This document shows, one piece after another, positions 14,171 to 40,200 of a DNA stretch of 59,022 nt (positions within the stretch are counted from its first letter, which is position 1; every line of letters begins with the position of its first letter). The stretch lies in IMG/VR virus record IMGVR_UViG_3300021425_000040, positions 1-59,022 of that record; one strand, given 5' to 3'. Position numbers and translations under genes: made by a program. This stretch comes from a virus (Duplodnaviria > Caudoviricetes). The notes under the pieces are model-generated. The model had not been told where the DNA came from and ran no database searches. It saw only the letters and a list, made by a program, of their open reading frames with translations.

Positions 14171-14190
14171 AAAAACGGCAGTTTTTGCCG
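14171..14190 (-). terminator. Rho-independent terminator of the HNH gene
   Basis: On the minus strand: CGGCA-aaaac-TGCCG hairpin followed by a T run, just after the stop at 14194. Confidence 0.65.
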
Positions 14191-14193
14191 GCC

Positions 14194-14514
14194 CTATACG
14201 GGCCGATATGGTTTTGCGATACCAGCGGCGGCTGCCTTGCAATATTTTGCCCAATATGCGCGACGGCTTTCTATTTCGGCGCGGGCTTCGCTATACGGCG
14301 CATATGCGCGAAAAACTACGTTTGCGGTTCCTTGCACCTTATTGCAAACATCGCACAAGCGCACAAAATTTTCTAGAACCATTGCGCCACCATTGGCTTC
14401 AGAAACTAAGTGACCCGCTTCGCGAGCATCCCAAGTGCCGCAAGCTGCGCAGCAATCAAAGCGCGCGAAAACTTCGTTGCGGATTTTTGCGGGGATTCTT
14501 GATTTTTTAGCCAT
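14194..14514 (-). CDS. HNH endonuclease-like protein
   Basis: CAAC...GH....NGG...EN...LCDVCN zinc-binding HNH pattern. Has its own SD (AGGAGA) and promoter. Confidence 0.75.
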   Translation of the reverse strand: MAKKSRIPAKIRNEVFARFDCCAACGTWDAREAGHLVSEANGGAMVLENFVRLCDVCNKVQGTANVVFRAYAPYSEARAEIESRRAYWAKYCKAAAAGIAKPYRPV

Positions 14515-14611: not shown

Positions 14612-14686
14612 AATCAATAGGTTAGCAGATTTTTGCAAAAAAAGCTGAATATGGGCTTGAAACCCGCGAAAATATGCTTATATTAA
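14612..14686 (+). promoter_or_regulatory. Single IHF-consensus box plus rightward sigma70-type promoter
   Basis: AATCAATAGGTTA at 14612-14624; TTGAAA at 14657 with TATATT 16 bp downstream. Confidence 0.55.
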
Positions 14687-14714
14687 TATTATGACATTTA
14701 CGAAAGGATTTAAA

Positions 14715-14948
14715 ATGTTTGGATATATTGTTCGCGAAACCGAAAAAGCCGTTGCCTTTGTTCAAGAGGGCAAATTTGCGGGCGTCGAAGTCAAGGCGCT
14801 ATGGGTTCCACGGTCTAAAATCAATTCTATGGTTGAGCGCGATAGCTACTCGCCAAGCATCCAGCTTGCCGGTGAGAAAATTCGCCGCTTTGGAATTCCA
14901 ACGGATATTGAAATTGATCCAGAATTTTTAAAAAAGATTGGGGTGTAA
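14715..14948 (+). CDS. Hypothetical pre-early protein
   Basis: SD AAAGGA favours the ATG at 14715 (MFGYIVRETEKAV...WVPRSKI). Confidence 0.7.
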   Translation: MFGYIVRETEKAVAFVQEGKFAGVEVKALWVPRSKINSMVERDSYSPSIQLAGEKIRRFGIPTDIEIDPEFLKKIGV

Positions 14949-14949
14949 A

Positions 14950-15087
14950 ATGAAAATCGCAAAGCGTAAACCCCAAACACCGCAGCCCGTAAAAAGGGCT
15001 GACGGTTCATGGTTTGTTCCATCTCGCCGTTGTTCGTCAACAATCAACAATAAAATTTCTAGCAGCTTCAAAGGAGTTAAAAAATGA
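14950..15087 (+). CDS. Small basic hypothetical protein (45 aa)
   Basis: MKIAKRKPQT...KGVKK. Starts 1 nt after the upstream stop and overlaps the next ATG (ATGA). Confidence 0.5.
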   Translation: MKIAKRKPQTPQPVKRADGSWFVPSRRCSSTINNKISSSFKGVKK

Positions 15088-15209
15088 GCGATCTGGATAT
15101 TATAAAGTACCACCTGTCTACAAAAGAATTCTGGTTCGGTATAGTTGTAACTCTACTAGGTACGCTTGCAATATGGGTAGCAGTGCAACTTGCAGCTGAG
15201 TTCTTGTAA
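15084..15209 (+). CDS. Small membrane peptide (41 aa)
   Basis: SD AAGGAG; MSDLDIIKYHLSTKEFWFGIVVTLLGTLAIWVAVQLAAEFL, a single TM helix. Confidence 0.65.
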   Translation: MSDLDIIKYHLSTKEFWFGIVVTLLGTLAIWVAVQLAAEFL

Positions 15210-15220
15210 AAAGCGTGCAA

Positions 15221-15316
15221 AATCAATAGCTTAGCGGCAGGGCCGCCCCGCCCGCTAAGTAGTTGATTTTAAACAGTTTTTTTAGGGTTGCAAAGCAATT
15301 AAAACTATGCGATAAA
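15221..15316 (+). repeat. Cassette element R1: inverted IHF boxes, GC core and promoter
   Basis: AATCAATAGCTTA-22 bp GC core-TAAGTAGTTGATT; TTGCAA at 15288, 17 bp, GATAAA. Confidence 0.85.
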
Positions 15317-15346
15317 CTTATATAAGATAACAAAGGAGAAAATCTT

Positions 15347-15832
15347 ATGACTACATTTTACACCGCTGGAAAAGTTTGGCACAATAAAAAATTTCAAAAT
15401 CTGCGTGATGATCTAGGCTATGCTGTAAAAGCTCGCTGGATTGACTTAGAAAATGATAGTGATTTTGTGCAAAATCAAAAAGATCAGCTCTGGAATTTGT
15501 GCTATGAAGATGTTCGGGATAGTGATTTCTTGCTGCTATATTGTGAAGATTTTAACGAAGAACAGCGCGGAGCGCTAGTTGAAATTGGAATGGCTTATGG
15601 CTGCGGAAAACCAGTATATGCTATAGGTAAGTGTGCAAGCATTGCACCTAATGAAATATCTGATGTTGCCTTCACGCATTTCAAAAACTGGACATGGCTA
15701 GAAACGACTGACTTAGTAGAAGGTGCAGACCAAGCTATTGCTATGCATGAAGGAAAGCAAAAGGCCCAGCGCCTTGTGAGTATGTTTAAAGATTTTAGAA
15801 CTGTTGGAACAGTACAATCGGAGGTTGCATAA
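15347..15832 (+). CDS. Nucleoside 2-deoxyribosyltransferase / nucleotide N-glycosidase-like protein
   Basis: FYTAG...DVRDSD.LL...GALVEIGMAYGCGKPV, the NDT-family catalytic Glu motif. Confidence 0.75.
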   Translation: MTTFYTAGKVWHNKKFQNLRDDLGYAVKARWIDLENDSDFVQNQKDQLWNLCYEDVRDSDFLLLYCEDFNEEQRGALVEIGMAYGCGKPVYAIGKCASIAPNEISDVAFTHFKNWTWLETTDLVEGADQAIAMHEGKQKAQRLVSMFKDFRTVGTVQSEVA

Positions 15833-16123
15833 ATGCCTTATATTCCCGTAGAAGATCGTTCACGCGTTGATGAAGCTGTAATGGATCAAGGGTGCCAATG
15901 GGTACCCAACAACGCCGGAGAGCTAAACTGGTTAGTATCTAGTTTTATAAATAATTTTTTAGAAGTGCATGGTGTACGCTATGCGTATCTAAATGAAATG
16001 ATGGGCGCTCTAGAGTGTTGCAAGCTAGAGCTGTATCGCAAGGTAGGTGCGCCTTATGAAGAAATAAAAGAGGCTGAAAATGGTAAAGCGTACTCAGTCG
16101 AATTGCAAGGAGCTGATTACTGA
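15833..16123 (+). CDS. Conserved phage protein (MPYI...GELN...KLELYR...PYE..K..ENG family; DUF6899-like by recollection)
   Basis: 96 aa. Motif pattern recognised by eye; family label unverified. Confidence 0.6.
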   Translation: MPYIPVEDRSRVDEAVMDQGCQWVPNNAGELNWLVSSFINNFLEVHGVRYAYLNEMMGALECCKLELYRKVGAPYEEIKEAENGKAYSVELQGADY

Positions 16124-16152
16124 GAATAATCCAACGCCTAATAATCCTTTAA

Positions 16153-16249
16153 TATCAAAGGGTTAGAGGGCGCGGCGCCCCCGCGCGCTAAGTGCTTGAT
16201 TTTAAACACTTTTTTAGTGCTTGACAATAATATAATAAAAGAGTATGGT
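16153..16249 (+). repeat. Cassette element R2
   Basis: TATCAAAGGGTTA-23 bp GC core-TAAGTGCTTGATT; TTGACA at 16221, 17 bp, TATGGT. Confidence 0.85.
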
Positions 16250-16277
16250 TTCTTATAGTCAATTAAAAGGAGTTCTC

Positions 16278-16604
16278 ATGGCTACTAAAACTGTAAATTA
16301 TACTACCGCACAAGTTGATCAAATTATCAGCATGTACAAGCAATCAGGTAATGAAGCTTTGCCAGAGATTGCTGCAGCTGTTGGTAAATCAGTTCGCTCT
16401 GTACGTTCTAAGCTAGTGCGGGAAGGCGTATACGTGGCTACCCCTAAGCCAAAACGGTCTTCAATTGATAAAGGACCTACTAAAAAAGAGCTTCTTAATG
16501 AGCTCGAGAAGGTGTGTGGTTTTGATGTCACACCTCTGTCTGGTTCTACAAAAGAGGGATTGCTTTCGCTGATCTCTTTTGCTAAAAAAATGGGAGAAGC
16601 TTAG
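16278..16604 (+). CDS. A2: T5 A2-like DNA-binding protein, paralogue 1
   Basis: SMY...LPEIAAAVGKSVRSVRSKL resembles recalled T5 A2 SMY...GLKEIAKAVG..SPVSVRSKL. SD AAAGGAG places the start at 16278. Confidence 0.75.
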   Translation: MATKTVNYTTAQVDQIISMYKQSGNEALPEIAAAVGKSVRSVRSKLVREGVYVATPKPKRSSIDKGPTKKELLNELEKVCGFDVTPLSGSTKEGLLSLISFAKKMGEA

Positions 16605-16634
16605 GCTTCTCCACAACCCTTTTAGGAGATATTT

Positions 16635-16802
16635 ATGTCTGTAAAAACTGCTATATGTTACGATGAGTGCGGCACGGAAGTTTCTATCCAAGTCGAGAGC
16701 TATCACCAGATACCTCAAGAATGGCGGTTCTGCTATTGGCAAGAATTCAGTGATCGGGAGCTTGCTGAGTGGCGGCTGGATCAGGAGCAAGACTGGCCCT
16801 AG
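16635..16802 (+). CDS. Small acidic hypothetical protein (55 aa)
   Basis: SD AGGAGA; MSVKTAICYDECGTEV...QEQDWP. Below the ORF-track cutoff. Confidence 0.65.
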   Translation: MSVKTAICYDECGTEVSIQVESYHQIPQEWRFCYWQEFSDRELAEWRLDQEQDWP

Positions 16803-16822
16803 CCTCGCAAAAAACCCTTTAA

Positions 16823-16998
16823 TATCAAAGGGTTAGCCGCACCGCCAAAAAAGTGTGTAATATCAAGGGGTTAGCAAGGGGGTCGCCCCGCTCGCTAAGT
16901 TATTGATTTTAAAGGGTTTTTTAATTCAAATAAAATGCTAAGTGCTTGTTTTTAAACGATTCTTTTCTGTTGACTTCAGCTGATTTATTCTTTATAAG
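16823..16998 (+). repeat. Cassette element R3 (four boxes)
   Basis: Boxes at 16823, 16861, 16896 and 16939; 22 bp GC core; TTGACT at 16970, 17 bp, TATAAG. Confidence 0.85.
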
Positions 16999-17021
16999 TT
17001 ATATATAAGGAGAATTTACTA

Positions 17022-17477
17022 ATGATTAAAAATATTTCTATCTTTGATTTAGACGGAACCTGCGTTGATAGCTCGCATAGGCAAGCTACTCTTGCAGATG
17101 GTACGCTAAACTTGGCGGCTTGGTTTGCCAACGCTACACCTGAAAAGATAGCTCAAGACAAGCTGCTTCCTTTAGCCAAGGAAATAAGCAACCGTAAAGA
17201 TAAAGGCGATTATGTGATAATCTGCACTGCTAGGAATATGTCTAGCGCAGATTATGAGTTTTTGAAAAAGAATAACATGGTTGCTCACAAGATTATTTCT
17301 CGCCCTGTGGGAAATATGGAAGCAGACGGATCACTTAAGGCGAAACAGCTTTCATCCTTTTTAAGCCTCCGCCAATTTAAAAGAGCTTCAAAAGTGATGT
17401 TTGATGACGCGCAAAGTGTCCGTTCTGCTATCCGAAAAATTGGTATTGCGGTACTAGATCCCGCAAAAATCAACTAG
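17022..17477 (+). CDS. dmp: Deoxynucleoside-5'-monophosphatase, T5 Dmp-like (HAD family)
   Basis: FDLDGT..SSHR, GTLNL, QDKLLPL, IICTARNMSSADY and MFDD parallel recalled T5 Dmp motifs (DLDGT..SFHR, QDTLLPL, IICTARLMSKSDY, MIDD). Confidence 0.85.
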   Translation: MIKNISIFDLDGTCVDSSHRQATLADGTLNLAAWFANATPEKIAQDKLLPLAKEISNRKDKGDYVIICTARNMSSADYEFLKKNNMVAHKIISRPVGNMEADGSLKAKQLSSFLSLRQFKRASKVMFDDAQSVRSAIRKIGIAVLDPAKIN

Positions 17478-17485
17478 AGGTTGTT

Positions 17486-17767
17486 ATGGAATATACTCAC
17501 GAATTAATGTTAGAATGTCACGAAAAACGAATGGGAGGAAATATGCGACACTTAATGATAATACGGCCAGATGGTGGCATCTGTGATTGCTATGGAGAGA
17601 TCGAAGAAAATAGCAATTTTGAAGTCGTATGCTACGACGAAGAAAATGATGGAATTTGGGCAACGGGAAACCATGATACCAATGAACCATTTAAAGACTG
17701 GGAAGAAGCTGTTAAATGGCTATGCGAAAATCTTGACTCACGGATTGAACAGCTAACCGCTGTTTAA
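17486..17767 (+). CDS. Acidic hypothetical pre-early protein
   Basis: 93 aa with SD GAGG, directly after dmp. Confidence 0.65.
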   Translation: MEYTHELMLECHEKRMGGNMRHLMIIRPDGGICDCYGEIEENSNFEVVCYDEENDGIWATGNHDTNEPFKDWEEAVKWLCENLDSRIEQLTAV

Positions 17768-17775
17768 TCCTTTAA

Positions 17776-17914
17776 AAACAAGCACTTACGGGCCGGGGCG
17801 CCCCGGCGGCTAAGTCATTGATTTTAAACGATTTTTTAATTGAAAAAAAAATGCTAAGTCCTTGTTTTTAAACGATTCTTTTTTCTTGCATTCTGCTTAT
17901 TTTAAAGCTATAAA
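17776..17914 (+). repeat. Cassette element R4 (three boxes)
   Basis: AAACAAGCACTTA-22 bp core-TAAGTCATTGATT, extra box at 17855; TTGCAT at 17886, 17 bp, TATAAA. Confidence 0.85.
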
Positions 17915-17950
17915 TATTATATTAACCCTCAAACAAAAAGGAGGCCAAAT

Positions 17951-18274
17951 ATGGCTACAACTAAAACTGCAAATTACACCGCCGCTCAAGTCGAGCAAAT
18001 CGTTTCTATGTATGCTGATCTAGGTAACGAAGGTCTGCAAGACATCTCTGACGCCGTGGGCAAATCTGTCCGGTCAGTTCGTTCGAAACTCGTGCGTGAG
18101 GGTGTTTATGTCGCCACCCCTAAAGCCGCTGCACCTAAGCGGGATCAAGGCCCAACCAAAAAAGAGCTGTTAAATCAGCTTGAAGAAATGGTTGGTTTTG
18201 ATGTTACTCCACTTTCGGGGTCAACCAAAGAAGGTTTGCAATCTCTGATTGCATTCGCCTCTAAGGTGGCATAA
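17951..18274 (+). CDS. A2: T5 A2-like DNA-binding protein, paralogue 2
   Basis: Same KSVRSVRSKLVREGVYVATPK core as paralogue 1; SD AGGAGG. Confidence 0.75.
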   Translation: MATTKTANYTAAQVEQIVSMYADLGNEGLQDISDAVGKSVRSVRSKLVREGVYVATPKAAAPKRDQGPTKKELLNQLEEMVGFDVTPLSGSTKEGLQSLIAFASKVA

Positions 18275-18279
18275 ACCAG

Positions 18280-18310
18280 AGGGGGCAAGGTTGCAGCCTT
18301 GCCCCTTTTT
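18280..18310 (+). terminator. Rho-independent terminator
   Basis: GGGGCAAGG-ttgcag-CCTTGCCCC followed by TTTTT. Confidence 0.85.
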
Positions 18311-18335
18311 ACTTGACACTGAAAAAAGTGTTTAA

Positions 18336-18474
18336 TATCAAACACTTACGGGCCGGGGCCCCCCGCGAGCTAAGTCATTGAAAACAAACAGTTTTTTAGT
18401 TAGCAGAAAAAGGCTAAGTGCTTGATTTTAAACGATTCTTTTTATTTGACAGTCTAATGTTTTTGCTTTACACC
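18336..18474 (+). repeat. Cassette element R5 (three boxes)
   Basis: TATCAAACACTTA-22 bp core-TAAGTCATTGAAA, extra box at 18415; TTGACA at 18446, 17 bp, TACACC. Confidence 0.85.
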
Positions 18475-18506
18475 TATAAGGGTAAAGCATACAGGAGAAT
18501 TTACAA

Positions 18507-19211
18507 ATGCCTTTCAAGCCTACTCTTTTCGTTGTAACCGATATTGAAACCACCATGCGCAAGCGTATTGCGTTTGATATTGCTTGGCGCATTGTTGACC
18601 GAAAAGGTCGGGAATATGGTTCTGGCTCTTATGTTATTCGTGAAGCCTTCAAACTTGATCTGCCTTTTTTCGCTGAAAAAATGGGTCATTATTTTGATGA
18701 TGCTTACAGCCACAAAATTGTGCCTGCATCTATTGATGACGTTCGCGCAGAGTACAACGCGCAAATTAATGCTCTTGCTGCTGCGGGTCATAAAGTCATT
18801 CTATGCGCTTACAATGCGCGTTTTGATTTTACGCATCTGCCTCGCACTTTGCAAGTTTTGCACAATGACACCTCTGCGCGTTGGTTAGATAACGCTTTTC
18901 CTCTGCTCGATATTTGGGATTTTTGGGGCCAAAGCGTTCCTCTTAATTATCGCGCCAATCCTTCAAAATCTGGCAAATACTTTTCAACGTCTGCGGAAAG
19001 CGCATACCGTTGGGAATTCATGCAAGAAGATTTTGAAGAACGTCATATTGCGTGGCATGATTGCTTGATTGAAAGTGATATTTTGCTGAAAGCATTGCAT
19101 CGCAAAAAGTCTATGCCTATAGTTTCCAAGCCTTCCGAGTTTTCTGGATCAGTTTGGAGAGATATCAATCTGAGACTAGGCGTTGACGGTTCTCAGGCTC
19201 TTGCTGCATAA
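18507..19211 (+). CDS. DEDDh (DnaQ-like) 3'-5' exonuclease
   Basis: ExoI TDIETT, ExoII AYNARFD, ExoIII HIAWHD. Confidence 0.8.
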   Translation: MPFKPTLFVVTDIETTMRKRIAFDIAWRIVDRKGREYGSGSYVIREAFKLDLPFFAEKMGHYFDDAYSHKIVPASIDDVRAEYNAQINALAAAGHKVILCAYNARFDFTHLPRTLQVLHNDTSARWLDNAFPLLDIWDFWGQSVPLNYRANPSKSGKYFSTSAESAYRWEFMQEDFEERHIAWHDCLIESDILLKALHRKKSMPIVSKPSEFSGSVWRDINLRLGVDGSQALAA

Positions 19212-19218
19212 TTAAACT

Positions 19219-19243
19219 GGGGTTTGCAAAGCGCAAGCCCCCC
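19219..19243 (+). terminator. GC hairpin after the exonuclease gene (weak terminator or RNA-stability element)
   Basis: GGGGTTTGC-aaagc-GCAAGCCCC with no T tail. Confidence 0.4.
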
Positions 19244-19262
19244 ACAACCCGAGGTTGAAAAA

Positions 19263-19373
19263 ATGGCTAAAATTAAACTTGCGCTTCCTTATATACTAAA
19301 GGCTTATATCGTTTACTCTGTTATATCCGAAACGGTAGTTTTAGGCGGGCTTATATACTTAATTTTCTTTTAA
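19263..19373 (+). CDS. Small membrane peptide (36 aa)
   Basis: SD GAGG; MAKIKLALPYILKAYIVYSVISETVVLGGLIYLIFF. The stop codon abuts R6. Confidence 0.55.
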   Translation: MAKIKLALPYILKAYIVYSVISETVVLGGLIYLIFF

Positions 19374-19469
19374 TATCAAGGGGTTAGGCGGCGGGGCCCA
19401 CAACCTGCTAAACTATTGAAAACAAACACTTTTTTTACTATTGCAGAAACATTTTAAAACTGATACTAA
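19374..19469 (+). repeat. Cassette element R6
   Basis: TATCAAGGGGTTA-22 bp core-TAAACTATTGAAA; TTGCAG at 19441, 17 bp, TACTAA. Confidence 0.8.
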
Positions 19470-19486
19470 TAATTAAAGGAGATAAT

Positions 19487-19696
19487 ATGGCTAGAAGAGT
19501 TGAATGGAAGGCTATCGGTAAATGTAAAGTTTGTGGCATAAATTTATATGCTGAGACTGACAATAAACCTCATAAGATTGCTATGCCTTGCAATCTAGGA
19601 GGTTGCCCTTATGAAACACCAGAACAGCAGCAAAGCGCTGATGAATTTTGGAGATCACTACCACCAGCAGGAAAAGGAATAACTTATTATGAATAA
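19487..19696 (+). CDS. Small zinc-binding hypothetical protein
   Basis: CKVC...PCNLGGCP; SD AAAGGAG. Confidence 0.65.
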   Translation: MARRVEWKAIGKCKVCGINLYAETDNKPHKIAMPCNLGGCPYETPEQQQSADEFWRSLPPAGKGITYYE

Positions 19697-19898
19697 ACAC
19701 TCAAATACATATAAAGAATGGTTTGCAGAAGTCGATCGTATCTTAGAACGTTCTATAGGCTTAGGGCAGGACTGTCTAGCAGACTGGCTAAGTCGAGACG
19801 CTTATAATGATGGTCTTAGCGCAGAAGAAGGTGCAGCTCTTTGCCTAGAAGCTCAAGACTTAATGAATGACGATGAGATATCAGAATTATTAAGTTAA
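19689..19898 (+). CDS. Small acidic hypothetical protein
   Basis: 69 aa, coupled to the upstream gene. The stop codon abuts R7. Confidence 0.65.
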   Translation: MNKHSNTYKEWFAEVDRILERSIGLGQDCLADWLSRDAYNDGLSAEEGAALCLEAQDLMNDDEISELLS

Positions 19899-19983
19899 AT
19901 CAGGGGCTTAGGCCCCGAGGCGCCCTGGCTCCTAACTTATTGATTTCATTGATCTTTTTCTCTCTTGACACAACTTAAAGTTG
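19898..19983 (+). repeat. Cassette element R7 (last copy, no downstream gene)
   Basis: AATCAGGGGCTTA-22 bp core-TAACTTATTGATT; TTGACA at 19965 but no usable -10. Confidence 0.75.
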
Positions 19984-20007
19984 AATGAGGCGCCCTAGGC
20001 GCCGCCT

Positions 20008-20036
20008 ATAGTAGTAGTTCAACAACCCGGATGCAA
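20008..20036 (-). promoter_or_regulatory. Leftward sigma70-type promoter with no downstream ORF
   Basis: TTGCAT-17 bp-TACTAT on the minus strand. Confidence 0.55.
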
Positions 20037-20172
20037 GTAGAAAAACAATTTAAGCTGCACCCAAACGTAAGTCTACTTTAGTTTTAGCACCAGGCCAAGT
20101 AGTAGTTCAACTATCATATTTCGTGGACCATAGTAGGCATTCGAAGTAATTATTTAATAGTCTAGCGCCACT

Positions 20173-20202
20173 ATTATAGTGGAAAAACTATAGCGTTGTC
20201 AA
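20173..20202 (-). promoter_or_regulatory. Leftward consensus sigma70 promoter with no downstream ORF
   Basis: TTGACA-18 bp-TATAAT on the minus strand. Confidence 0.65.
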
Positions 20203-20288
20203 GCGCAAATTAGCTGTGTCCGCTCGTCAAAGTCAAGTCACATAAAAAAACAGAGAGCAGCATAGAAGCAGAAGATTCATCTTTCTTC

Positions 20289-20317
20289 TTGCTTACTTGC
20301 TGTTTTTATCGTATATT
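20289..20317 (+). promoter_or_regulatory. Promoter of A2 paralogue 3
   Basis: TTGCTT-17 bp-TATATT. Confidence 0.65.
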
Positions 20318-20388
20318 GATTATGTTGATGAGGGAAATGAGCGCCTCGAACCAGCTCAGAAGCCAATTATATAGAAAGAGGTTCAAAT

Positions 20389-20706
20389 ATGGCTAACACT
20401 ACAGTAAACTACACAGACGCACAAGTAGAAATGATTGTTGAAATGTACAACGAGCTAGGCAATGACGGTCTTGAAGAAATCGCATCTGCTGTTAGCAAGT
20501 CAGTACGGTCAGTTCGGTCAAAGCTGGTGCGCGAAGGTGTTTATGTTGCTACACCTAAAGCCAAGGCAGCTCCAAAAGATATGGGTCCTTCGAAGAAGGA
20601 ACTGTTGAATAACTTGGAGCAAATTGTAGGCTTTGATGTCACCGGCTTCACCGGTGCTACTAAGCCCGCGCTGGCTACGCTTATTGAAAAGCTGCAAGCT
20701 GCCTAA
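20389..20706 (+). CDS. A2: T5 A2-like DNA-binding protein, paralogue 3
   Basis: GLEEIASAVSKSVRSVRSKLVREGVYVATPK; SD GAGG. Confidence 0.75.
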   Translation: MANTTVNYTDAQVEMIVEMYNELGNDGLEEIASAVSKSVRSVRSKLVREGVYVATPKAKAAPKDMGPSKKELLNNLEQIVGFDVTGFTGATKPALATLIEKLQAA

Positions 20707-20728
20707 GCGTGGTGCAACATGAACACAC

Positions 20729-20756
20729 GGGGGGCCTTCGGGCCCCCTTATCTTTT
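20729..20756 (+). terminator. Hairpin with a cUUCGg tetraloop (terminator)
   Basis: GGGGGCC-TTCG-GGCCCCC followed by TTATCTTTT. Confidence 0.8.
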
Positions 20757-20779
20757 AATGGCTAAAAAAAGGAATAATC

Positions 20780-21196
20780 ATGCAAGGTTTGATCGAATCT
20801 GATAATTATATTAAATGTGGACACTGCAACTATGCTCACACTTATGGTGAGCGTCTAGATACAGGTTATGACGTTGTATGTCCTAACTGTCAATCTGATG
20901 CTTCTACTGAAGATTTAGATGATGAACAAAAGTACTATTGGTGGAGTGTTGGTATATATTCAACAGGCGAGAACTACGGAGGCCCCGAAGAGGGCGGCTG
21001 GTGGTACACAGCAGGTAACCTAGAGCATCATGATAAAGTTCGTAGCTTTTATTCGCTAAAACAAGCTCAAGAATATGCTGTAGAACTACGTAATTGGTTA
21101 ACAGAACATACTAATGGACTAGATTATGTAATAAAAGGGTTTACAGAACAGTTTCCTGATGATGGATTTCCTAAAGTAAGACCACGTTATTGCTAA
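20780..21196 (+). CDS. Hypothetical phage protein with a Zn ribbon and YGGPEEGGWWY motif
   Basis: CGHC...CPNC; 138 aa; SD AAGGA. Confidence 0.7.
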   Translation: MQGLIESDNYIKCGHCNYAHTYGERLDTGYDVVCPNCQSDASTEDLDDEQKYYWWSVGIYSTGENYGGPEEGGWWYTAGNLEHHDKVRSFYSLKQAQEYAVELRNWLTEHTNGLDYVIKGFTEQFPDDGFPKVRPRYC

Positions 21197-21203
21197 AAAC
21201 GAG

Positions 21204-21234
21204 AAAAAGGAGCCCTTTTGAGGCTCCTTTTTTT
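21204..21234. terminator. Bidirectional terminator closing the plus-strand island
   Basis: AAAAAGGAGCC-loop-GGCTCCTTTTTTT. Confidence 0.85.
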
Positions 21235-31521: not shown

Positions 31522-34500
31522 TTAAGTACCAGATGCTGCTGCGGCAAGAGCTGGTTTTGTAAGATCCCCTATATAACTAGCATTACCTGTTGTTTGTACA
31601 GTTACTCTTTGCATTTCTTCTCCAAATAGATTAGATATACTTCCTCCAGTACATAAAGCATAGGTACCATCACTAGATGCGCCCGCCTGGCTAGTTATAT
31701 AAACTAAGTCTCCAAAATCTGTAGCATTACCTGTTGTTTGTATAGTAACATAGTCTATATGATTTGAATTGCCTGCAGGCTGACCACCAAATATAACTGC
31801 TCTCGTAGCATCTGCGGTAGCAGCCGCCTTTTGATTAGCAATAGTTAAGTCGCCAAAGTCACCACTAGTACCAGAACTAGTAAAGTTCTGATATTTAATT
31901 TCGTTGAACGCAGTATAACTACTATTAACCCCTCCAAAAAATAGAGCTCTAGTAGAGTCTCCTGCCCCAGTTATCCACGCTCTGATAGCAGGTAAAGTAC
32001 TAAAATAAGAAGCATTACCCGTAGTACTTACAGTAATTCTTTCTATATCTGCAAACCAACTACTAATGCTATAGCTAGAGTAAGCCCCACCCCCTGCAAA
32101 AAGACCATAAGTTCCATTACCAGCACCAGCTAGCTCTGCTTTACCTGCAGTTAAACTACCAAAGTTAGAAGCAGAAGCAATAGAAACGGAAGAGTAATAG
32201 TCCATAGAAGAATAGTTTATCTGACTGCCAGGATTTTGAGAATAGTCAACACCACTAGAACTACCCCCTCTTCCTCCTGCAAAAACAATTCTAGTTCCGT
32301 TACTTACAGCAGCAAGACCACTTGCATATTTACCAAAGCCTAGATTACCAAAGAAAGAAGCATTGCCTGTAGTCGAAATTTGCTTTACATCTCTACTTTG
32401 AAAATATTCTGCACCTGATCCGGTATTACCTCTTCCGTGAGCTATAATAGCTTTATCTCCTCCAGTTACAAAAGGAGGCGGTGTTATACTAGTATCGTTA
32501 ATAGTTATAGTACTAGAAGTAGCTACTATGGTGCCGCTTATACTATCAGTTCTAATTTCTATTTGAAAAGTTTCTGATCCTTCTGTAGTAGCATCTGCTG
32601 TGGGAGTAACTGTAAATGATGCTGCATCATTATTTATAGTAAAACTACCACTAGAAGTTGTAAAGTCTCCTGAGTTAGTAAGAGTATAATATAAAGTGGT
32701 AGAATTAGCTACGTTACCTGTAGACACGTTTACAGTTAAAGCTGCACCCTCATTAATACTGCTTGAAGCAGGGGTTACTGAATAGGTTTTACGAAGCGTG
32801 AATATATGAGCAAAGCCACTACCGCTAGAAGATCCTGTACCTCCCAATCTAGAGCCTATAACTGCACTTTCTCCTTCTATTCCTACTCCTGAACCAAAGC
32901 CGTCGTTCTCATCAGTATTAGAACCTTGTAATATTGCATACTGATTCCAAGTACTTCCTGTACGTTTATATATGTAAGCCTTACCTGCATTAGAAGAAGG
33001 GCTATCTATATTTTCTGCACCTATAATAATATTATCTGAATCTATGTCTATAGAATTACCAAAGTAATCATTAGCTCCGGGGTTAGGATGAGGTATTCTT
33101 TGCTGCTCTGTCCAAGTAGTTCCTGAACGGGTAAATATATATACAGCTCCTGCGTCGGATACACTACTTACATCTTCAAAAGGTACCCCAACTGCTGCGC
33201 TATCTCCATCTATAGTTACGGCAGTTCCAAATCTAGCACTTGTTTCAGATACACTAGCAGTTAACTTTTGTTGCTGTGTCCAAGTAGTACCTGAACGTGT
33301 AAATATGTAAGCCGAACCAGAGCCGCTATTAGTATCATCATCCCATATACTTCCTGCTATAATGGTGTCTCCAGATATAGCCACAGAATAACCGAATTCA
33401 TCGTTGGCAGCCACGTCTGAAGGTTGAATTTTTTGTTGTTGTGTCCAAGTAGTGCCTGAACGTGTAAATACATATATAGAACCAGCATTAGAATCGGTAT
33501 CATCTTCGTAGTGAGCGCCTACAACAATAGTATCTCCGTCTATACCTACAGATACTCCAAACCTATCCTCTTCAGCTGCGTCTGAAGCTTGAATTTTTTG
33601 TTGTTCTGTCCAAGTAGTGCCTGAACGTGTAAATACATATATAGATCCGGCTGCGAGAGCAGTGGTATCTTCATCCTGTAAGCCTATAACAGCAGTGTCT
33701 CCTGATATAGCAAAGGCTGTAGTATTAATACCATCATCTGCTTGAGCATCAGAAGCTTTAAGCTTTTGTTGTAATGTCCAAGTAGTTCCCGATCTTGTGT
33801 AAATATAAGCCGCTCCTGAGTCAGTTGCTGTATCATCATCTAGTGGAGCACCTAAAATAACAGTATCTCCTGATATAGCAACTCTCTCTCCAATTTTATC
33901 TACAGGGTCAGCAGAAGCAGGAAGCAATAATGCTTCTTGAGACCACACTGAAGGATCATTTAAAGTTATAGCACTAGAAGTAGCTACTATAGTTCCACTT
34001 GTACTGCCTGTTCGTATTCTTACAGTAAAAGTTTTTTCAGGCTCATCTACACCGTCAGAAATAGGAGTTAAAGTAAAAGATCCTGTAGTACCGCTTATAT
34101 TAAAGCTACCGCTAGAAACACTAAACTCAGCCGGAGCATCTGTATCCCAGTATAAAGTAGGCTCTCCAGGTACATTAGCAGTAGTTACTGTTACTGTTAA
34201 AGTGCCCCCTTCATTTATAGCAGTACTAGATAATGCTATACTATAGCTAGGAGAATCAAATTCTACAGAATCCCAGTTGTCTGTATTAAATATGTATAAT
34301 CTATTATCGCCAGCTACGTAGGCTGTATCTCCGTTTGTACCAGAAGAAGGTAAAGAGCTAACGTTAGCATAATAAGTTACGCCCCCACTAGAAACGTCTC
34401 CAGGAACAAATTTACTACCTGAATTATTCCATACTAATGCTTGTCCGTCTGTTGGAGCGCTTGTAGTAATATCAACATTATTAATGTCATCTATACTACT

Positions 34501-35433
34501 GTTTGTATCTAATAGTTTTATCCAATTACCACCATGCGCAAAATAGCCTTTTCCAGTAGAGTGAACATGTGCAAACATACCGTGATAAGTAGTAGCGTTA
34601 GGCAAATCACCTTCTGTTGCAAACATATTTGCAAACTTAACAATTTCAGCATCTGTGGCGGCTAAAGCTCTAGCATCTGTAAAATAAAGATTTGTACCTT
34701 CAGCAACATCAGTAGTTGATTTAGTTCCGATCCAAGTGTCTGCTGTTGATGTAAAGTCTGAGGTTGCTAACTTAGTAGCAATGCTATTTGTTACTGTTGT
34801 GCTAAAATTAGCATCATCTCCTAATGCCGATGCAAGCTCATTAAGGGTATCTAAAGTCGCAGGGGCTGAGTCTACTAAGTTACTAACTTGTGCGTTCACA
34901 TAAGTTTGAGTAGCAAAGTCTTCTGTACTGCCTGACGCAGTAACAGCTAAAGAGCCACCATTATCAGATATTTGTAGGGATCCTAAGGATATTGTGCTAC
35001 CACTAAGATATAGGTCTTTAAATGCATAAGCTGCGCTTCCTAAATCATAAGCAACATTTGTAGCAGGAATAACATTTCCAGATATAGCACCTAATTTAGT
35101 TTGTACTCTTGCATCTGTGTAATATACATTAGTGCTTCCTTCACTTACATCGTCTGTATCTTTAGTTGCTAAATCGGTATTAAAATCACTAGTAGAGTAA
35201 CTAGTAATTGTTCCAGGTTCGAATTCTGTATTAGAACTATTCCAAACAAGGACTTGCCCATCTGTTGGGGCAGCAGTAGTTATGTCTACATCTGTTAAAT
35301 CGTCTATACCTATAGAAGTTGCAGCGGTAGAGGTAATATCCCATGCAGTTTTAGCACTGTTATATGTCCAAGTAGTACCCGACACTGTATGTGTCGTACC
35401 GTTACTAGGACTGTTTGGAAAGTTTATTGGCAT
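31522..35433 (-). CDS. Modular fibre/adhesin with an FG-GAP propeller, Calx-beta/Ig-like domains and a C-terminal TTGNA.DFGDL propeller
   Basis: 1303 aa. MPINFPNSP anchor; LDTLNELASALGDD motif; seven AYIFTRSGTTW-type repeats; two INEG..LTV.V.T.NV domains. Confidence 0.85.
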   Translation of the reverse strand: MPINFPNSPSNGTTHTVSGTTWTYNSAKTAWDITSTAATSIGIDDLTDVDITTAAPTDGQVLVWNSSNTEFEPGTITSYSTSDFNTDLATKDTDDVSEGSTNVYYTDARVQTKLGAISGNVIPATNVAYDLGSAAYAFKDLYLSGSTISLGSLQISDNGGSLAVTASGSTEDFATQTYVNAQVSNLVDSAPATLDTLNELASALGDDANFSTTVTNSIATKLATSDFTSTADTWIGTKSTTDVAEGTNLYFTDARALAATDAEIVKFANMFATEGDLPNATTYHGMFAHVHSTGKGYFAHGGNWIKLLDTNSSIDDINNVDITTSAPTDGQALVWNNSGSKFVPGDVSSGGVTYYANVSSLPSSGTNGDTAYVAGDNRLYIFNTDNWDSVEFDSPSYSIALSSTAINEGGTLTVTVTTANVPGEPTLYWDTDAPAEFSVSSGSFNISGTTGSFTLTPISDGVDEPEKTFTVRIRTGSTSGTIVATSSAITLNDPSVWSQEALLLPASADPVDKIGERVAISGDTVILGAPLDDDTATDSGAAYIYTRSGTTWTLQQKLKASDAQADDGINTTAFAISGDTAVIGLQDEDTTALAAGSIYVFTRSGTTWTEQQKIQASDAAEEDRFGVSVGIDGDTIVVGAHYEDDTDSNAGSIYVFTRSGTTWTQQQKIQPSDVAANDEFGYSVAISGDTIIAGSIWDDDTNSGSGSAYIFTRSGTTWTQQQKLTASVSETSARFGTAVTIDGDSAAVGVPFEDVSSVSDAGAVYIFTRSGTTWTEQQRIPHPNPGANDYFGNSIDIDSDNIIIGAENIDSPSSNAGKAYIYKRTGSTWNQYAILQGSNTDENDGFGSGVGIEGESAVIGSRLGGTGSSSGSGFAHIFTLRKTYSVTPASSSINEGAALTVNVSTGNVANSTTLYYTLTNSGDFTTSSGSFTINNDAASFTVTPTADATTEGSETFQIEIRTDSISGTIVATSSTITINDTSITPPPFVTGGDKAIIAHGRGNTGSGAEYFQSRDVKQISTTGNASFFGNLGFGKYASGLAAVSNGTRIVFAGGRGGSSSGVDYSQNPGSQINYSSMDYYSSVSIASASNFGSLTAGKAELAGAGNGTYGLFAGGGAYSSYSISSWFADIERITVSTTGNASYFSTLPAIRAWITGAGDSTRALFFGGVNSSYTAFNEIKYQNFTSSGTSGDFGDLTIANQKAAATADATRAVIFGGQPAGNSNHIDYVTIQTTGNATDFGDLVYITSQAGASSDGTYALCTGGSISNLFGEEMQRVTVQTTGNASYIGDLTKPALAAAASGT

Positions 35434-37227: not shown

Positions 37228-40200
37228 TTATCCAAATACAATAGACATTGCTATTGCCTTACCTGTTGTTACTCCACCACCTGTCGGACCTTGAGGACCT
37301 CTAGGTCCACTTACTGCTACCCATTGACTAGAACTCCCATCTGCATAGTATACATATAACGTAGCTGAATCAGAATTAAACCATTGATCTCCATTAGCAG
37401 CCCCGCTAGGGGGCGTAGTACCTACACTAACAGATGATCCTGCAGGTCCGCTTACCGATACCCATTGATTAGAGCTACCGTCTGCATAGTATATATACAT
37501 AGAACCATCAGCACTATTAAACCATTGATCTCCGTTAGAAGGAGAACTAGGAGCAGTGTCAGATACTGAAACAGAAGATCCTTCTGAAGCTACGTTAGCT
37601 GGGGCCCAATTACTTTGAGAAGTATTCCATATTAGTGCTTGCCCATCTGCAGGAGCAGTATTAGATACATTATTTAAATCTGCAAGAGCAACATTAGCAC
37701 TAATGCGAGCATCAACTCTAGCATCTGTATAGTATAAATTACTAGTACCTTCAGTAAGTTCATCAGTATTAAAAGGGTTACCTATTGCTACTGAAGCGCC
37801 CATACCACCATGATTAGCACAGTAGTAATATAAAGCAGGGGTTGAATTGTCTACTGCTATTTGTACATACGCACTAGCAGACCCTGCAGTACCACTGGTA
37901 GTCACACCAGTTGTATATTCTGAGCCGCCTCCATGTGTTCCATCTGAAGTAGTAGAAAATCTTAATGGGTGACTAGAGTTAGTACTATCACTTTGATCAA
38001 ATTTATAGGTTCTTCCTGGCTCTAATGATATAGTAGCTTGTTGAGCTCCATCTATATAGAAATTACCGCCACTAACTGTTACTGCCGCTGTACTTGCTGA
38101 GGCAGATAAATTAGCTTGTACAGTATTAATGTTACTAGCGTTACTAATAGTATTAGCACTTACAGTGCCTAACTGTGCAAGTATAGTGGTACTGAAGTTT
38201 GCATCATCTCCTAGTGCAGCAGCGAGCTCATTTAGAGTGTTAAGAGTTGCAGGGGCAGAATCTACTAGGTTTGCAGTTGCAGTATTAACATAAGTCTCTG
38301 TTGCATATCCTGTAAGAGAAGGAATAGTTGGTTGATTAGTTAAGTCGTTATAAGAACCAGATGTGGCTACTGTAGATAAGTCAGCGGTATTAGCTTTAGT
38401 TGCTAAATCTGCACTCGTAAGTATCTCTAATAAAGATACTTTAATAGCAGTATTAGATAGAGATACGCCAACTCTTGCATTATGAGTGTCTGGGGTTGTA
38501 CTAAGGGTTCCATCTTCTACTACGTAGTACACTTGGTCTGCGATTAAACCCGTTAATTGATTGTGAATACTACCGTCTACGGATACATCAATAGTAGTGC
38601 CTGATGAGGCAGCAATACCATGTAATTTAGTAGCGTCTAAAGAAGATTCTACAAAATCACCTCTAATATTCATTCCAACCCATATACTAGAGTCTGCCGA
38701 ACTGTTATGAGTTCTAGGATCTAGTCTAGTTCCCATACCCTTTCTGTGAGGGTCTACTACTATTCTACCTTCATAACGCCAGCCATTATCTCTAACATGA
38801 CTTGCACTACCGTAGTTGCCTCCGTTTGAGGTTTGAGTCTCCTGATTATTTGTAATAGTACCGTTAGAAGCAACTTTCATAGAACGAATATATCCAGCAT
38901 CATGGGTCGATGAAAATTGAGTAAATTGTCTAATATAAGTATGAACTAAAGTACTTGAGCCAGATAAGAAGGTAAAGTCTCCATTTGCAAATTCAAAACG
39001 GTCTTCACCAAAATTCCTTTCAGACCCATAAGTAGAAGGAGTGGTTCCATTTGCCTCGTAAGTTCTATACCTTAAATTGTCAACATTTGTTCCTCCTGAA
39101 CCGCCTACTAACCATGCAACAACAAATTTATCATTTGTAGGATCCCATGCGACTTTAGCGGGCATTGAAGTTCCAGTATAAATAGATGCTGGAGTAGTGG
39201 CGTTTCCTACAGTATATGTTCCATTATCCCAATCTACATCAAAAATTTCTAAATCACCAGCCTGAGGCCCCCCATTCAAACTACCACTTACGGCAGCAAA
39301 TCTGCCTTCAGTTATAGAAGAAAACCCAACCCCTCTAGGGTCAATACCTCTATCTATAGTAATTTCATTTGAAAAAGATACAGAACTACTAGTTCCATCC
39401 CAAGTTCCTCTTACTAGTCTAAGACGAGTACCACTGCCATCATCAGCGCGGGTATACATTATTATAAATTTGTAATTTCCCGCACTACTTCCAGCAAAAT
39501 CATATACAATTTTTTCATTCCATGTAGATTCATAACCAAAGCCTGCATCTGTAGCACTAGTCCAAGAAATAGTACTTCCACTTATAGTTCCGAATCCGTA
39601 GGCATAATCGCCTCTATATACACCACCGCTGAAGGCTTCTTGTCTTTTTTGAAGGTATAAAAACTTATTAGTATTTACAAGACTGCCTAAAATAAACGGA
39701 GCAGAATATTCTGAAACGCTAAAATAACTAGAGTTTGATGCCATTTCTGTGCCCACTACATACTTTTGACCATAACTCCATTGTGAACCCGTCCAATCTA
39801 TAATAGCCACTGCTTCTTGGTTATTACTACCAATTCCATCATAGCCAGCTAGAATAAATTTATTATCGATACCTGTTGGAAATATTCTTCCCGGCCTAGA
39901 TGCTATAGCGTATCCATTGTAGACATCGGTAGAGCTCGATGACCATCCATTATTTTCTTGAACTTCGTACTCACCCCCTAATGATAAAGAGTCAGTATAA
40001 GTTGTAACTTCTACTGGAGTAACAGTTCCATCAGTATTCAACATTACAACATCATTTACAGATGCAGAAGTTGTAGATGTATATTCTATAGTATTAGTGT
40101 TTGGTACGTCTGCCGCGGTAATATAGTTTGCACCATTAGTCAATTGATTGTTGTTTGTTGGAATAGTTGGTTGATTAGTTAGATCGTTATATGAGCCAGA

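Follow-up and report, generated by a model that had tools for sequence, protein, structure and literature searches.

The promoter and stem-loop units known as PeSLs, reportedly described by Arbiol in 2010, are said to be mobile regulatory cassettes of T4-type phages. In the account by Comeau (2014), a PeSL combines a short stem-loop terminator, of the form G(n)-loop-C(n) or A3-4G3-loop-C3T3-4, with a promoter (PMC4122927). The first-step-transfer region of phage T5 is described in a preprint by Davison as containing repeats, palindromes and DnaA boxes, with IHF (integration host factor) raised merely as a possibility (10.1101/866236). Here we analyse an array of seven elements, E1 to E7, in a stretch of viral DNA of 59,022 nucleotides (Duplodnaviria; Caudoviricetes; IMG/VR record IMGVR_UViG_3300021425_000040), the whole of which we call the window and whose source record is linear and an estimated 43% complete. 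As far as the accessible part of the PeSL account goes, the elements resemble PeSLs in being short conserved regulatory repeats between the small early genes of a plastic region, in having a sigma-70-type promoter inside the unit and in bordering insertions, deletions, replacements and displacements of ORFs (open reading frames) between relatives (PMC4122927). They resemble the T5 region in the company of dmp and A2 homologues, in small genes on host-type promoters and in a richness in nested palindromes.

The array is real, strongly non-random and clade-wide; it has a constant anatomy, a fixed geometry and a coupling to promoters, it is restricted to a single block, and its elements mark cassette boundaries where gene order differs among relatives. 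Judging from these sequence features, we consider it fairly likely that the elements serve as a promoter-upstream module for a host IHF-type protein and also as a dispersed recombination joint.

In a repeat search of the window, E1 to E7 came out as a single family, whose 75-nt copies share 60-100% identity with the reference and start at the positions given in the list below. The module is intergenic, ~76 bp long and of a common layout: an A-run, the 13-mer WATCAANNNNTTR or a near match (the box), a core of nearly pure G+C, the inverted 13-mer, TTTAAAC with a T-run and a -35 hexamer. The core measures 22 bp in six of the seven elements and 23 bp in E2, and among the 14 arms ten are exact copies of WATCAANNNNTTR and four (E4L, E5R, E6R and E7L) are off by 1-2 bases. 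Three elements carry an extra box, at 16939, 17855 and 18415, which starts 43, 44 and 44 bp past the preceding box respectively, and the last box stands 32 bp before the -35 hexamer in E1, E2, E6 and E7 and 31 bp before it in E3, E4 and E5. At a 17-bp spacer from the hexamer, a -10 sequence is acceptable in five of the seven elements, weak in E5 and absent in E7. The original prediction had described a seven-element array of inverted 13-mers around a GC core, with a core of 22 bp in six copies and 23 bp in one, extra boxes spaced by 43-44 bp in E3-E5 and a distance of 31-32 bp from the last box to the -35 hexamer, and every part of this anatomy was recovered by our searches; two orphan left boxes (14612 and 16823) and an A-tract outside each promoter-proximal arm come in addition to what that prediction listed.

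Chance does not account for these numbers. The exact 13-mer occurs 19 times in the window, as against 6.05 +/- 2.53 in 100 shuffles, none of which reached 19; 13 of the 19 copies lie inside 14612-19933, and the six outside the block equal the chance expectation. A box-N22-box pattern with up to three mismatches gave eight matches in the window where 1.33 +/- 1.08 were expected, six of them being elements with 0-1 mismatch and the other two (2274 and 3279) having three mismatches and lacking a GC core. E2, with its 23-nt core, escapes this pattern and was caught by a looser regular expression, which, together with a core GC of at least 0.75, returned exactly the seven elements across the window. 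Partial arms also stand one behind another, as left-left-core-right in E3 and as core-right-right in E3, E4 and E5, and these look like scars from earlier insertions into an element. The elements, their promoters and the cassettes between them are as follows.

14612-14624 (+): orphan left box, an exact IHF-type 13-mer, upstream of the block's first small-gene unit
15208-15282 (+): E1, with an A-tract, box L at 15221-15233, GC core at 15234-15255, box R at 15256-15268 and a T-tract
15288-15293 and 15311-15316 (+): E1 promoter, -35 TTGCAA and -10 GATAAA
15347-16123 (+): cassette 1, a nucleoside 2-deoxyribosyltransferase-like (NDT) gene (161 aa) and a DUF6899 gene (96 aa)
16141-16216 (+): E2, with box L at 16153-16165, a 23-bp core and box R at 16189-16201
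16221-16226 (+): E2 promoter, -35 TTGACA, with -10 TATGGT ending at 16249
16245-16802 (+): cassette 2, A2-like paralogue a (119 aa) and a 55-aa ORF
16823-16846 (+): orphan left box (16823-16835) retaining exactly 11 nt of GC half-core, directly before the A-tract of E3
16848-16951 (+): E3, with box L at 16861, core, box R at 16896 and an extra box at 16939-16951
16970-16975 and 16993-16998 (+): E3 promoter, -35 TTGACT and -10 TATAAG
17022-17767 (+): cassette 3, a T5 dmp homologue (HAD phosphatase, 151 aa) and a 93-aa ORF
17763-17867 (+): E4, with box L at 17776, core at 17789-17810, box R at 17811 and an extra box at 17855-17867
17886-17891 and 17909-17914 (+): E4 promoter, -35 TTGCAT and -10 TATAAA
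17951-18274 (+): cassette 4, A2-like paralogue b (107 aa), then a canonical hairpin and T-run terminator at 18282-18305
18323-18427 (+): E5, with box L at 18336, core, box R at 18371 and an extra box at 18415-18427
18446-18451 and 18469-18474 (+): E5 promoter, -35 TTGACA and a weak -10 TACACC
18507-19373 (+): cassette 5, a 234-aa protein with a predicted DEDDh (RNase T/DnaQ-like) exonuclease fold and a 49-aa ORF
19361-19435 (+): E6, with box L at 19374, core and a degenerate box R at 19409
19441-19446 and 19464-19469 (+): E6 promoter, -35 TTGCAG and -10 TACTAA
19487-19898 (+): cassette 6, two 69-aa ORFs, the second DUF5419-like at slightly under the Pfam cut-off
19885-19959 (+): E7, with box L at 19898, core and box R at 19933
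19965-19970 (+): TTGACA of E7, lacking a -10 and not kept in relatives
20389-21196 (+): last co-oriented unit, A2-like paralogue c (105 aa) and a 138-aa ORF
21202-21234: strong bidirectional terminator after the 138-aa ORF unit

E1 to E6 precede cassettes 1 to 6, in agreement with the earlier claim that six elements head units of one or two genes.

The same module recurs among relatives. With its core positions coded as S, the dual-box pattern matched 32 IMG/VR loci as against one locus in 596 Gb of prokaryote genomes; this single match (L151, in a metagenome-assembled genome of Burkholderiales) is a lone site with one exact box, and was taken as chance or as a mis-binned contig. In three larger records the elements are limited to one block each (2.4-17.3, 20.4-23.8 and 20.8-31.4 kb), with none in a control read backwards. 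The newly found loci hold 184 elements, whose cores are 22 nt long in 179, 23 nt in three and 21 nt in two. In a set of 175 distinct copies (duplicates removed, flanks required, core search span 20-24 nt) 167 have a core of 22 nt, five one of 23 nt and three one of 21 nt, and the suggestion that geometry is conserved far better than sequence thereby extends to many lineages. Of these 175 copies, 66 have a -35-like hexamer at 30-33 nt from just one of the two boxes and four have one at that distance from both, the distances showing a sharp peak at 31-32 nt and a second near 49. A stricter scan for promoters (TTG, at least 4/6, plus a -10), which placed one at 29-34 nt in only 20 of the 175, was superseded by this positional count of the -35 alone. 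No element was found around dmp/A2 in T5, Vibrio phage 70E35.2 or Aeromonas phage AhSzq-1. The T5-related phages to which the module is specific form an uncultured marine clade. Two distant relatives, L134 (12.7 kb) and L143 (12.1 kb), hold 24 and 22 elements respectively in ~12 kb, and most of their short inter-element cassettes are without similarity to genes of the window.

Alignment of 19 arms in one orientation gave the consensus aAAaAA-N3-gTTTAA-WATCAA-N4-TTA-GC. According to a published description, a canonical 34-bp IHF site has WATCAA starting near its centre, TTR after another 4 bp and a pair of ApA steps at a 9-bp interval (an ApA/TpT step lying 9 bp upstream of the AA of WATCAA), with an A4-6 tract in the 5' half of some sites; all four features, as in the lambda H'-type site, are also present in the element arms (PMC1874591). 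The boxes, which had been read as the IHF consensus, are accordingly good IHF-type sites. They differ from single canonical sites in forming strictly spaced inverted pairs around a GC spacer, seven times in 5 kb, and they go beyond the canonical site in that the GTTTAA and TTAGC positions are also conserved. By eye, an A5-6 tract lies outside all seven promoter-proximal arms, all three extra boxes, three of the seven left arms and the 16823 orphan, and TTTAA directly precedes the box in most arms; clade-wide, an A4 tract stands outside at least one box in 145 of the 175 copies. The terminator-like T-run of the elements is thus the A-tract of the promoter-proximal IHF-type site.

We also searched with an extended box, CTAAGTNNTTGATTTTAAAC, which matched at least 120 IMG/VR loci as against four for a scrambled control of the same composition, and among the matches listed 66 non-redundant contexts lie outside the relatives. 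The extended box is found between terS and terL beside a palindrome, a cos/pac-like setting (L013, near 1732), among GGGGAC iterons next to a primase, an origin-like setting (L011, near 5596), and before a promoter in a DnaB/UvsX/polymerase module (L038). Terminase, iteron/primase and replication-module contexts are classic settings of IHF sites. As the extended box occurs in phages of differing types, a host protein is favoured over a protein of this phage as the putative binder of the boxes. Boxes adjacent to tRNA genes were considered as att sites and rejected, ARAGORN showing phage tRNA arrays followed by a box and a promoter.

The order of the cassettes differs among relatives while the elements stay between them. 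In the window the order is NDT-DUF, A2-o55, dmp-o93, A2, o234, o69a-o69b and A2-o138 (o denoting an ORF, with its length in residues), and this order is kept in the near-identical relatives L043, L079, L135-138 and L147, although in two of them, L043 and L138, additional sequence follows the DUF6899 gene, with a 63-aa ORF in L043. In five independent contigs (group B: L009, L114, L116, L102 and L076) the order is NDT-DUF, a new 73-aa ORF, o234, A2, dmp-o93, A2-o55, o69-o95 and A2-o138, so that four cassettes are reversed in order relative to the window with their orientation retained. Over 14 representative loci, at 35-90% protein identity, we counted at least nine orders, all of them co-oriented and with elements between the cassettes; the linked pairs NDT-DUF and o69a-o69b persist, and o93 swaps partners. 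An identical order in relatives had been named as an observation that would count against shuffling, and these loci show the opposite.

When the window is compared with group B, the left flank, the left box and the whole core track the upstream gene at b4 and b5, and the right box and promoter track the downstream gene. The whole core going with the upstream gene places the crossovers at these joints within or adjacent to box R, where the shared sequence is longest; at b3, b5 and b6 the crossover points are not resolvable because the GC cores are too alike. Contigs of other runs provided further joints: one from run X11 joins the E6 core to the E2 core (19396-GG-16179), another from run X5 leads from the 16823 orphan (16835) over 11 letters into the E4 core, at its second half (17800), and others run to 17809-17811. 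Exact strings common to the elements are at most 22 nt long, and assembly chimaeras at k=31 are therefore unlikely. We read these contigs as rearranged relatives, not as proven within-population variants.

Under the reading that we favour, each copy consists of two full-length inverted IHF-type sites (A-tract, TpT step, WATCAA, N4, TTR), the TTR ends of both facing the fixed 22-bp G+C-rich spacer, and the promoter-proximal site is locked 31-32 bp upstream of a sigma-70 -35 hexamer. A host IHF-type protein on both arms would make two sharp bends flanking a stiff GC rod; as the bend centres are ~48 bp (~4.5 helical turns) apart, the two proteins would sit on roughly opposite faces, in a zig-zag, and the promoter-proximal footprint would end beside the -35. 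The module would in this way shape the DNA upstream of every cassette promoter, and it would probably stimulate or insulate that promoter on the newly entered DNA. Since the module is the only sequence common to the cassettes, recombination between copies would move, delete or insert promoter-plus-gene units, the left box and most of the core going with the upstream cassette and the right box and promoter with the downstream one, and the exchanged units could keep their expression undisturbed. The interpretation offered originally is supported in part: the IHF-type sites, the fixed geometry and the cassette boundaries stand, pre-early status is a matter of homology, and promoter activation and a ratchet or compaction role are putative.

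Several observations weigh against this reading. E7 has no recognisable -10, its -35 is unconserved in relatives, and it heads ~430 bp of conserved non-coding DNA. Clade-wide, 105 of the 175 copies have no -35-like hexamer at 30-33 nt, and some have a third box or a -35 near 49. The absence of the element from three cultured T5-like phages means that it is not general to T5-type pre-early regions. The extended box was a search pattern of our own choosing, which in itself accounts for part of the conservation seen in other phages, and some of its contexts may belong to one and the same large clade of phages, as further regions of their genomes. As the conserved GTTTAA and TTAGC exceed the Escherichia coli IHF consensus, a more specific binder is possible, and no HU/IHF gene was found in the window (the record being ~43% of the genome). 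The joint contigs were placed at 85% likeness, some sides being 23-28 letters long. Furthermore, the central 4-6 bp of the core covary as a palindrome, for which IHF alone is not an explanation, and E1, E3, E4 and E7 fold as one long RNA hairpin (z -4.55, -2.58, -2.41 and -1.93 respectively).

The centre of the core bears on the possibility that the module, or its GC centre, is an operator for a phage protein, either the A2-like paralogues or another early protein, which would silence or time the promoters; we regard this as a minority explanation that still deserves attention, and it holds with or without IHF on the arms. Among 132 distinct elements the two central core pairs are complementary at frequencies of 0.86 and 0.78 where 0.55 was expected (z 7.2 and 5.3), as for a dimeric binder, and the core centre is alike within one phage and differs between phages; within each distant relative it is nearly invariant, for example GGGCCCCGGCCC in L134. 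A palindromic, lineage-specific core centre leaves room for a phage protein or a site-specific crossover. The operator view draws further strength from the A2-like genes, one to three of which lie in the same block in 13 of the 14 representative array loci, L130 having none, and from the three cultured T5-like phages without the element, of which T5 and AhSzq-1 have a single annotated A2 gene. However, all four features of the host IHF site are found in the arms, single boxes occur in unrelated phage modules that hold no A2-like gene within the available sequence, and the central covariation may stem from the within-genome relatedness of copies instead of selection. The accessible part of the BF23 paper gives no nick consensus with which the GC core might be compared as a T5-type nick site.

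We think it improbable, although less so than the last alternative below, that the elements are promoter/terminator cassettes of the PeSL type, in which the palindrome, transcribed into a long RNA hairpin, would terminate the unit before it, transcription of the following unit would begin at the promoter, and the boxes would be incidental parts of the stem. This would accommodate the shape of the elements, imperfect palindromes bounded by an A-run at the left end and by a T-run at the right, the four that fold as one long hairpin, the position of every element between a stop codon and a promoter, and the PeSLs themselves, which in the accessible part of their description have the same position and the same link with gene shuffling (PMC4122927). 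The hairpin itself fares poorly. RNA folding did not form it in E2, E5 or E6; the N positions of the boxes agree between left and right arms in 6 of 28 cases, a level of complementarity equal to chance; and in the 132 elements no mirror pair of the arms and outer core rises above expectation (z -3.1 to +2.8), one pair of the outer flank reaching z 3.5 and no pair outside the central 4 bp being taken as covarying. The cores fold no better than shuffles of their composition (mean z -0.44, with one of 15 cores at 0.05 or below), and the left arm, although it can form a conspicuous local hairpin of its own in E2L, E5L, L134 and the orphan at 16823, shows no covariation for such a hairpin across the 132 elements.

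The position of the T-run, ~20 nt from the GC core, is unfavourable to termination, and a terminator scan called none of the seven elements on the + strand. Ordinary terminators stand apart from the elements, after the A2a gene (16593-16612) and just before E5 (18282-18305). Contigs of two RNA libraries from one study run unbroken from 16454/16837 to 19792, over E3-E6; this continuity is weak evidence, as contigs are not single transcripts and the libraries may contain DNA. No weight was given to a stretch lacking contig cover, to the end of two contigs at 16123 or to the small word shares of runs X18-X20. A selected hairpin or terminator is not supported. In a selected stem the free N positions would still pair, which they fail to do, and we conclude that the palindrome is a by-product of two inverted binding sites that flank a GC spacer whose short centre is palindromic.

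The joints raise a third possibility, a dedicated site-specific recombination site in which a 13-22-13 crossover module, with IHF as architectural cofactor, is used by a candidate recombinase to move cassettes, comparable systems being the H2-core-H' part of lambda attP and integron attC. Fixed spacing and a palindromic centre are what such a site would have; several of the contig joints fall at or near the core centre, that of 16835-17800 being exactly the second half of the E4 core, the 16823 orphan keeps its left box with exactly 11 nt of half-core, and cassette order is permuted with orientation kept. On this view the 22-bp core would be the true crossover site, IHF would shape the synapse and strand exchange at the palindromic core centre would fall to a candidate phage protein, such as the multiplied A2-like DNA binders, possibly together with the DEDDh exonuclease; a clade of virulent marine T5-like phages would then run an integron-like exchange of self-expressing host-takeover cassettes in their first-entering DNA, and virulent phages would, if the crossovers are indeed site-specific, possess a cassette system of a new kind. 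We judge both the dedicated site and this wider scheme quite unlikely: no tyrosine recombinase was found in the window (a search that covered neither serine recombinases nor the remaining ~57% of the genome), the recurring genes of the block are dmp, A2, NDT, DUF6899, the exonuclease and small ORFs, the whole core tracks the upstream cassette at b4 and b5, which puts the crossovers in or next to box R, and the low complexity of the GC cores leaves crossover points poorly resolved.

The array lies in a co-oriented + strand block at ~14.1-21.2 kb, flanked on both sides by minus-strand structural genes. Its cassette 3 HAD protein has 33% identity with T5 dmp over 169 columns (E 5e-17) and matched 905 phage records, all at <60% identity, those listed being T5-like phages, mostly of Vibrio, Salmonella, Escherichia and Klebsiella. 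The three A2-like paralogues have a weak similarity to T5 A2 (37% identity over 63 columns, E 1e-6) and belong to phrog_1725, which has T5 A2 as model member. For T5 A1, tblastn gave a best E of 2.5 in the window and nothing in the relative loci searched, and only four scattered DnaA-box-like 9-mers occur in the 59 kb, with no cluster. The pre-early label given originally to these genes is consequently supported by homology only: homologues of T5 dmp and A2 are present, and an A1 homologue and a DnaA-box cluster are not.

Of the other products, the NDT-like protein scores 27.4 bits against PF05014, below the cut-off of 28.8, and the 96-aa protein belongs to DUF6899 (PF21840, E 5e-24). The 234-aa protein (18507-19211) has no Pfam match, and its DEDDh set (D12, E14, D107, H180 and D185) is invariant in eight homologues; its predicted structure (mean confidence, pLDDT, 82.7) has RNase T as best Foldseek match (E 4.6e-6), so that an RNase T/DnaQ-like DEDDh exonuclease fold is predicted for it. 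Neither the 234-aa protein nor A2-like paralogue a found a PDB sequence below E 0.1 by phmmer, and the paralogue was also without a tblastn match at E 1e-3. The 5.1-kb region had no blastn match in the phage collection, and no close cultured relative was found. An Rfam scan of 13.5-22.5 kb gave one sub-threshold match at chance level.

In runs X15, X16 and X5 (two RNA libraries of one study and one DNA run) the contig depth over ~14.3-21.0 kb exceeds the depth over the flanks by a factor of about 2-3, contig depth not being a copy number. The edges of the raised depth lie near terminator-like hairpins at 14189-14205 and 21202-21234, and many IMG/VR contigs of relatives consist of this block alone (4.5-9 kb). 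Raised depth and block-only contigs would fit a collapsed direct terminal repeat; given what contig depth can tell, we infer, and do not observe, that the block is injected first.

Between E7 and the third A2-like gene (19960-20389) lie the ~430 bp of conserved non-coding DNA, which hold a GGCGCC-N3-GGCGCC hairpin, the 14-mer AGTAGTAGTTCAAC twice (20010 and 20098) and a perfect minus-strand promoter, TTGACA-18-TATAAT, at 20202-20173 pointing toward E7. The first part is kept even in L139, a relative at only ~70% protein identity, and the stretch may be a small antisense RNA gene or a cis-acting site. Elsewhere in the window are two very large tail-fibre-like ORFs, of 2423 aa (37228-44499) and 1303 aa (31522-35433), and the C-terminal part of the former matches a T5 L-shaped-fibre assembly (chaperone) family, phrog_3304.

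The element also differs from other known repeats. BIME-1/RIP elements of E. coli are intergenic chromosomal repeats that combine an IHF site with GC-rich palindromic units, two such units being laid around one IHF site; the layout here is the inverse, and the element is near-absent from prokaryote genomes (one locus). The attC sites of integrons are imperfect palindromes that bound co-oriented gene cassettes, usually promoterless, and they need the integron integrase; their R''/R' core sites are ordered AAC...GTT, whereas by inspection the boxes of the element are ordered GTT...AAC, the reverse of the attC consensus. PF00589, the family sought for an integron-type integrase, gave no match in the window, its control being positive in 14 of 14 genomes. 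The left terminal repeat of T5 has no exact IHF 13-mer and no dual-box element, and the window for its part differs from the first-step-transfer region in lacking an A1 homologue and a DnaA-box cluster.

The PeSLs, with which the elements were first compared, remain the nearest parallel in function, as promoters and as borders of rearrangement, but not in anatomy: the stem-loop terminator half is unsupported here, and two inverted IHF-type sites with a fixed 22-bp spacer stand in its place. The hosts of PeSLs are T4-type phages, as against T5-related phages here, and IHF is mentioned 0 times in the PeSL paper (PMC4122927). The statement that no such architecture had been described was borne out in the literature searched, supplementary files aside, where we found none with paired IHF sites in T5-like or early phage regions. 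Within that literature the architecture is new; we place it among the mobile regulatory cassettes, with the distinction that its anatomy is unusual and very rigid. By its sequence signature the gene block for host takeover can be located in an abundant clade of uncultured phages, and more than 170 spacing-invariant copies form a natural set for the study of two IHF bends 48 bp apart at a promoter. A promoter-upstream module for a host IHF-type protein predicts that the earliest phage promoters would depend on IHF. T4-type phages reshuffle small early genes at promoter/terminator repeats, and the same behaviour is now seen in marine relatives of T5, at a repeat that is built differently, from what appear to be paired host-factor sites at a rigidly fixed spacing.

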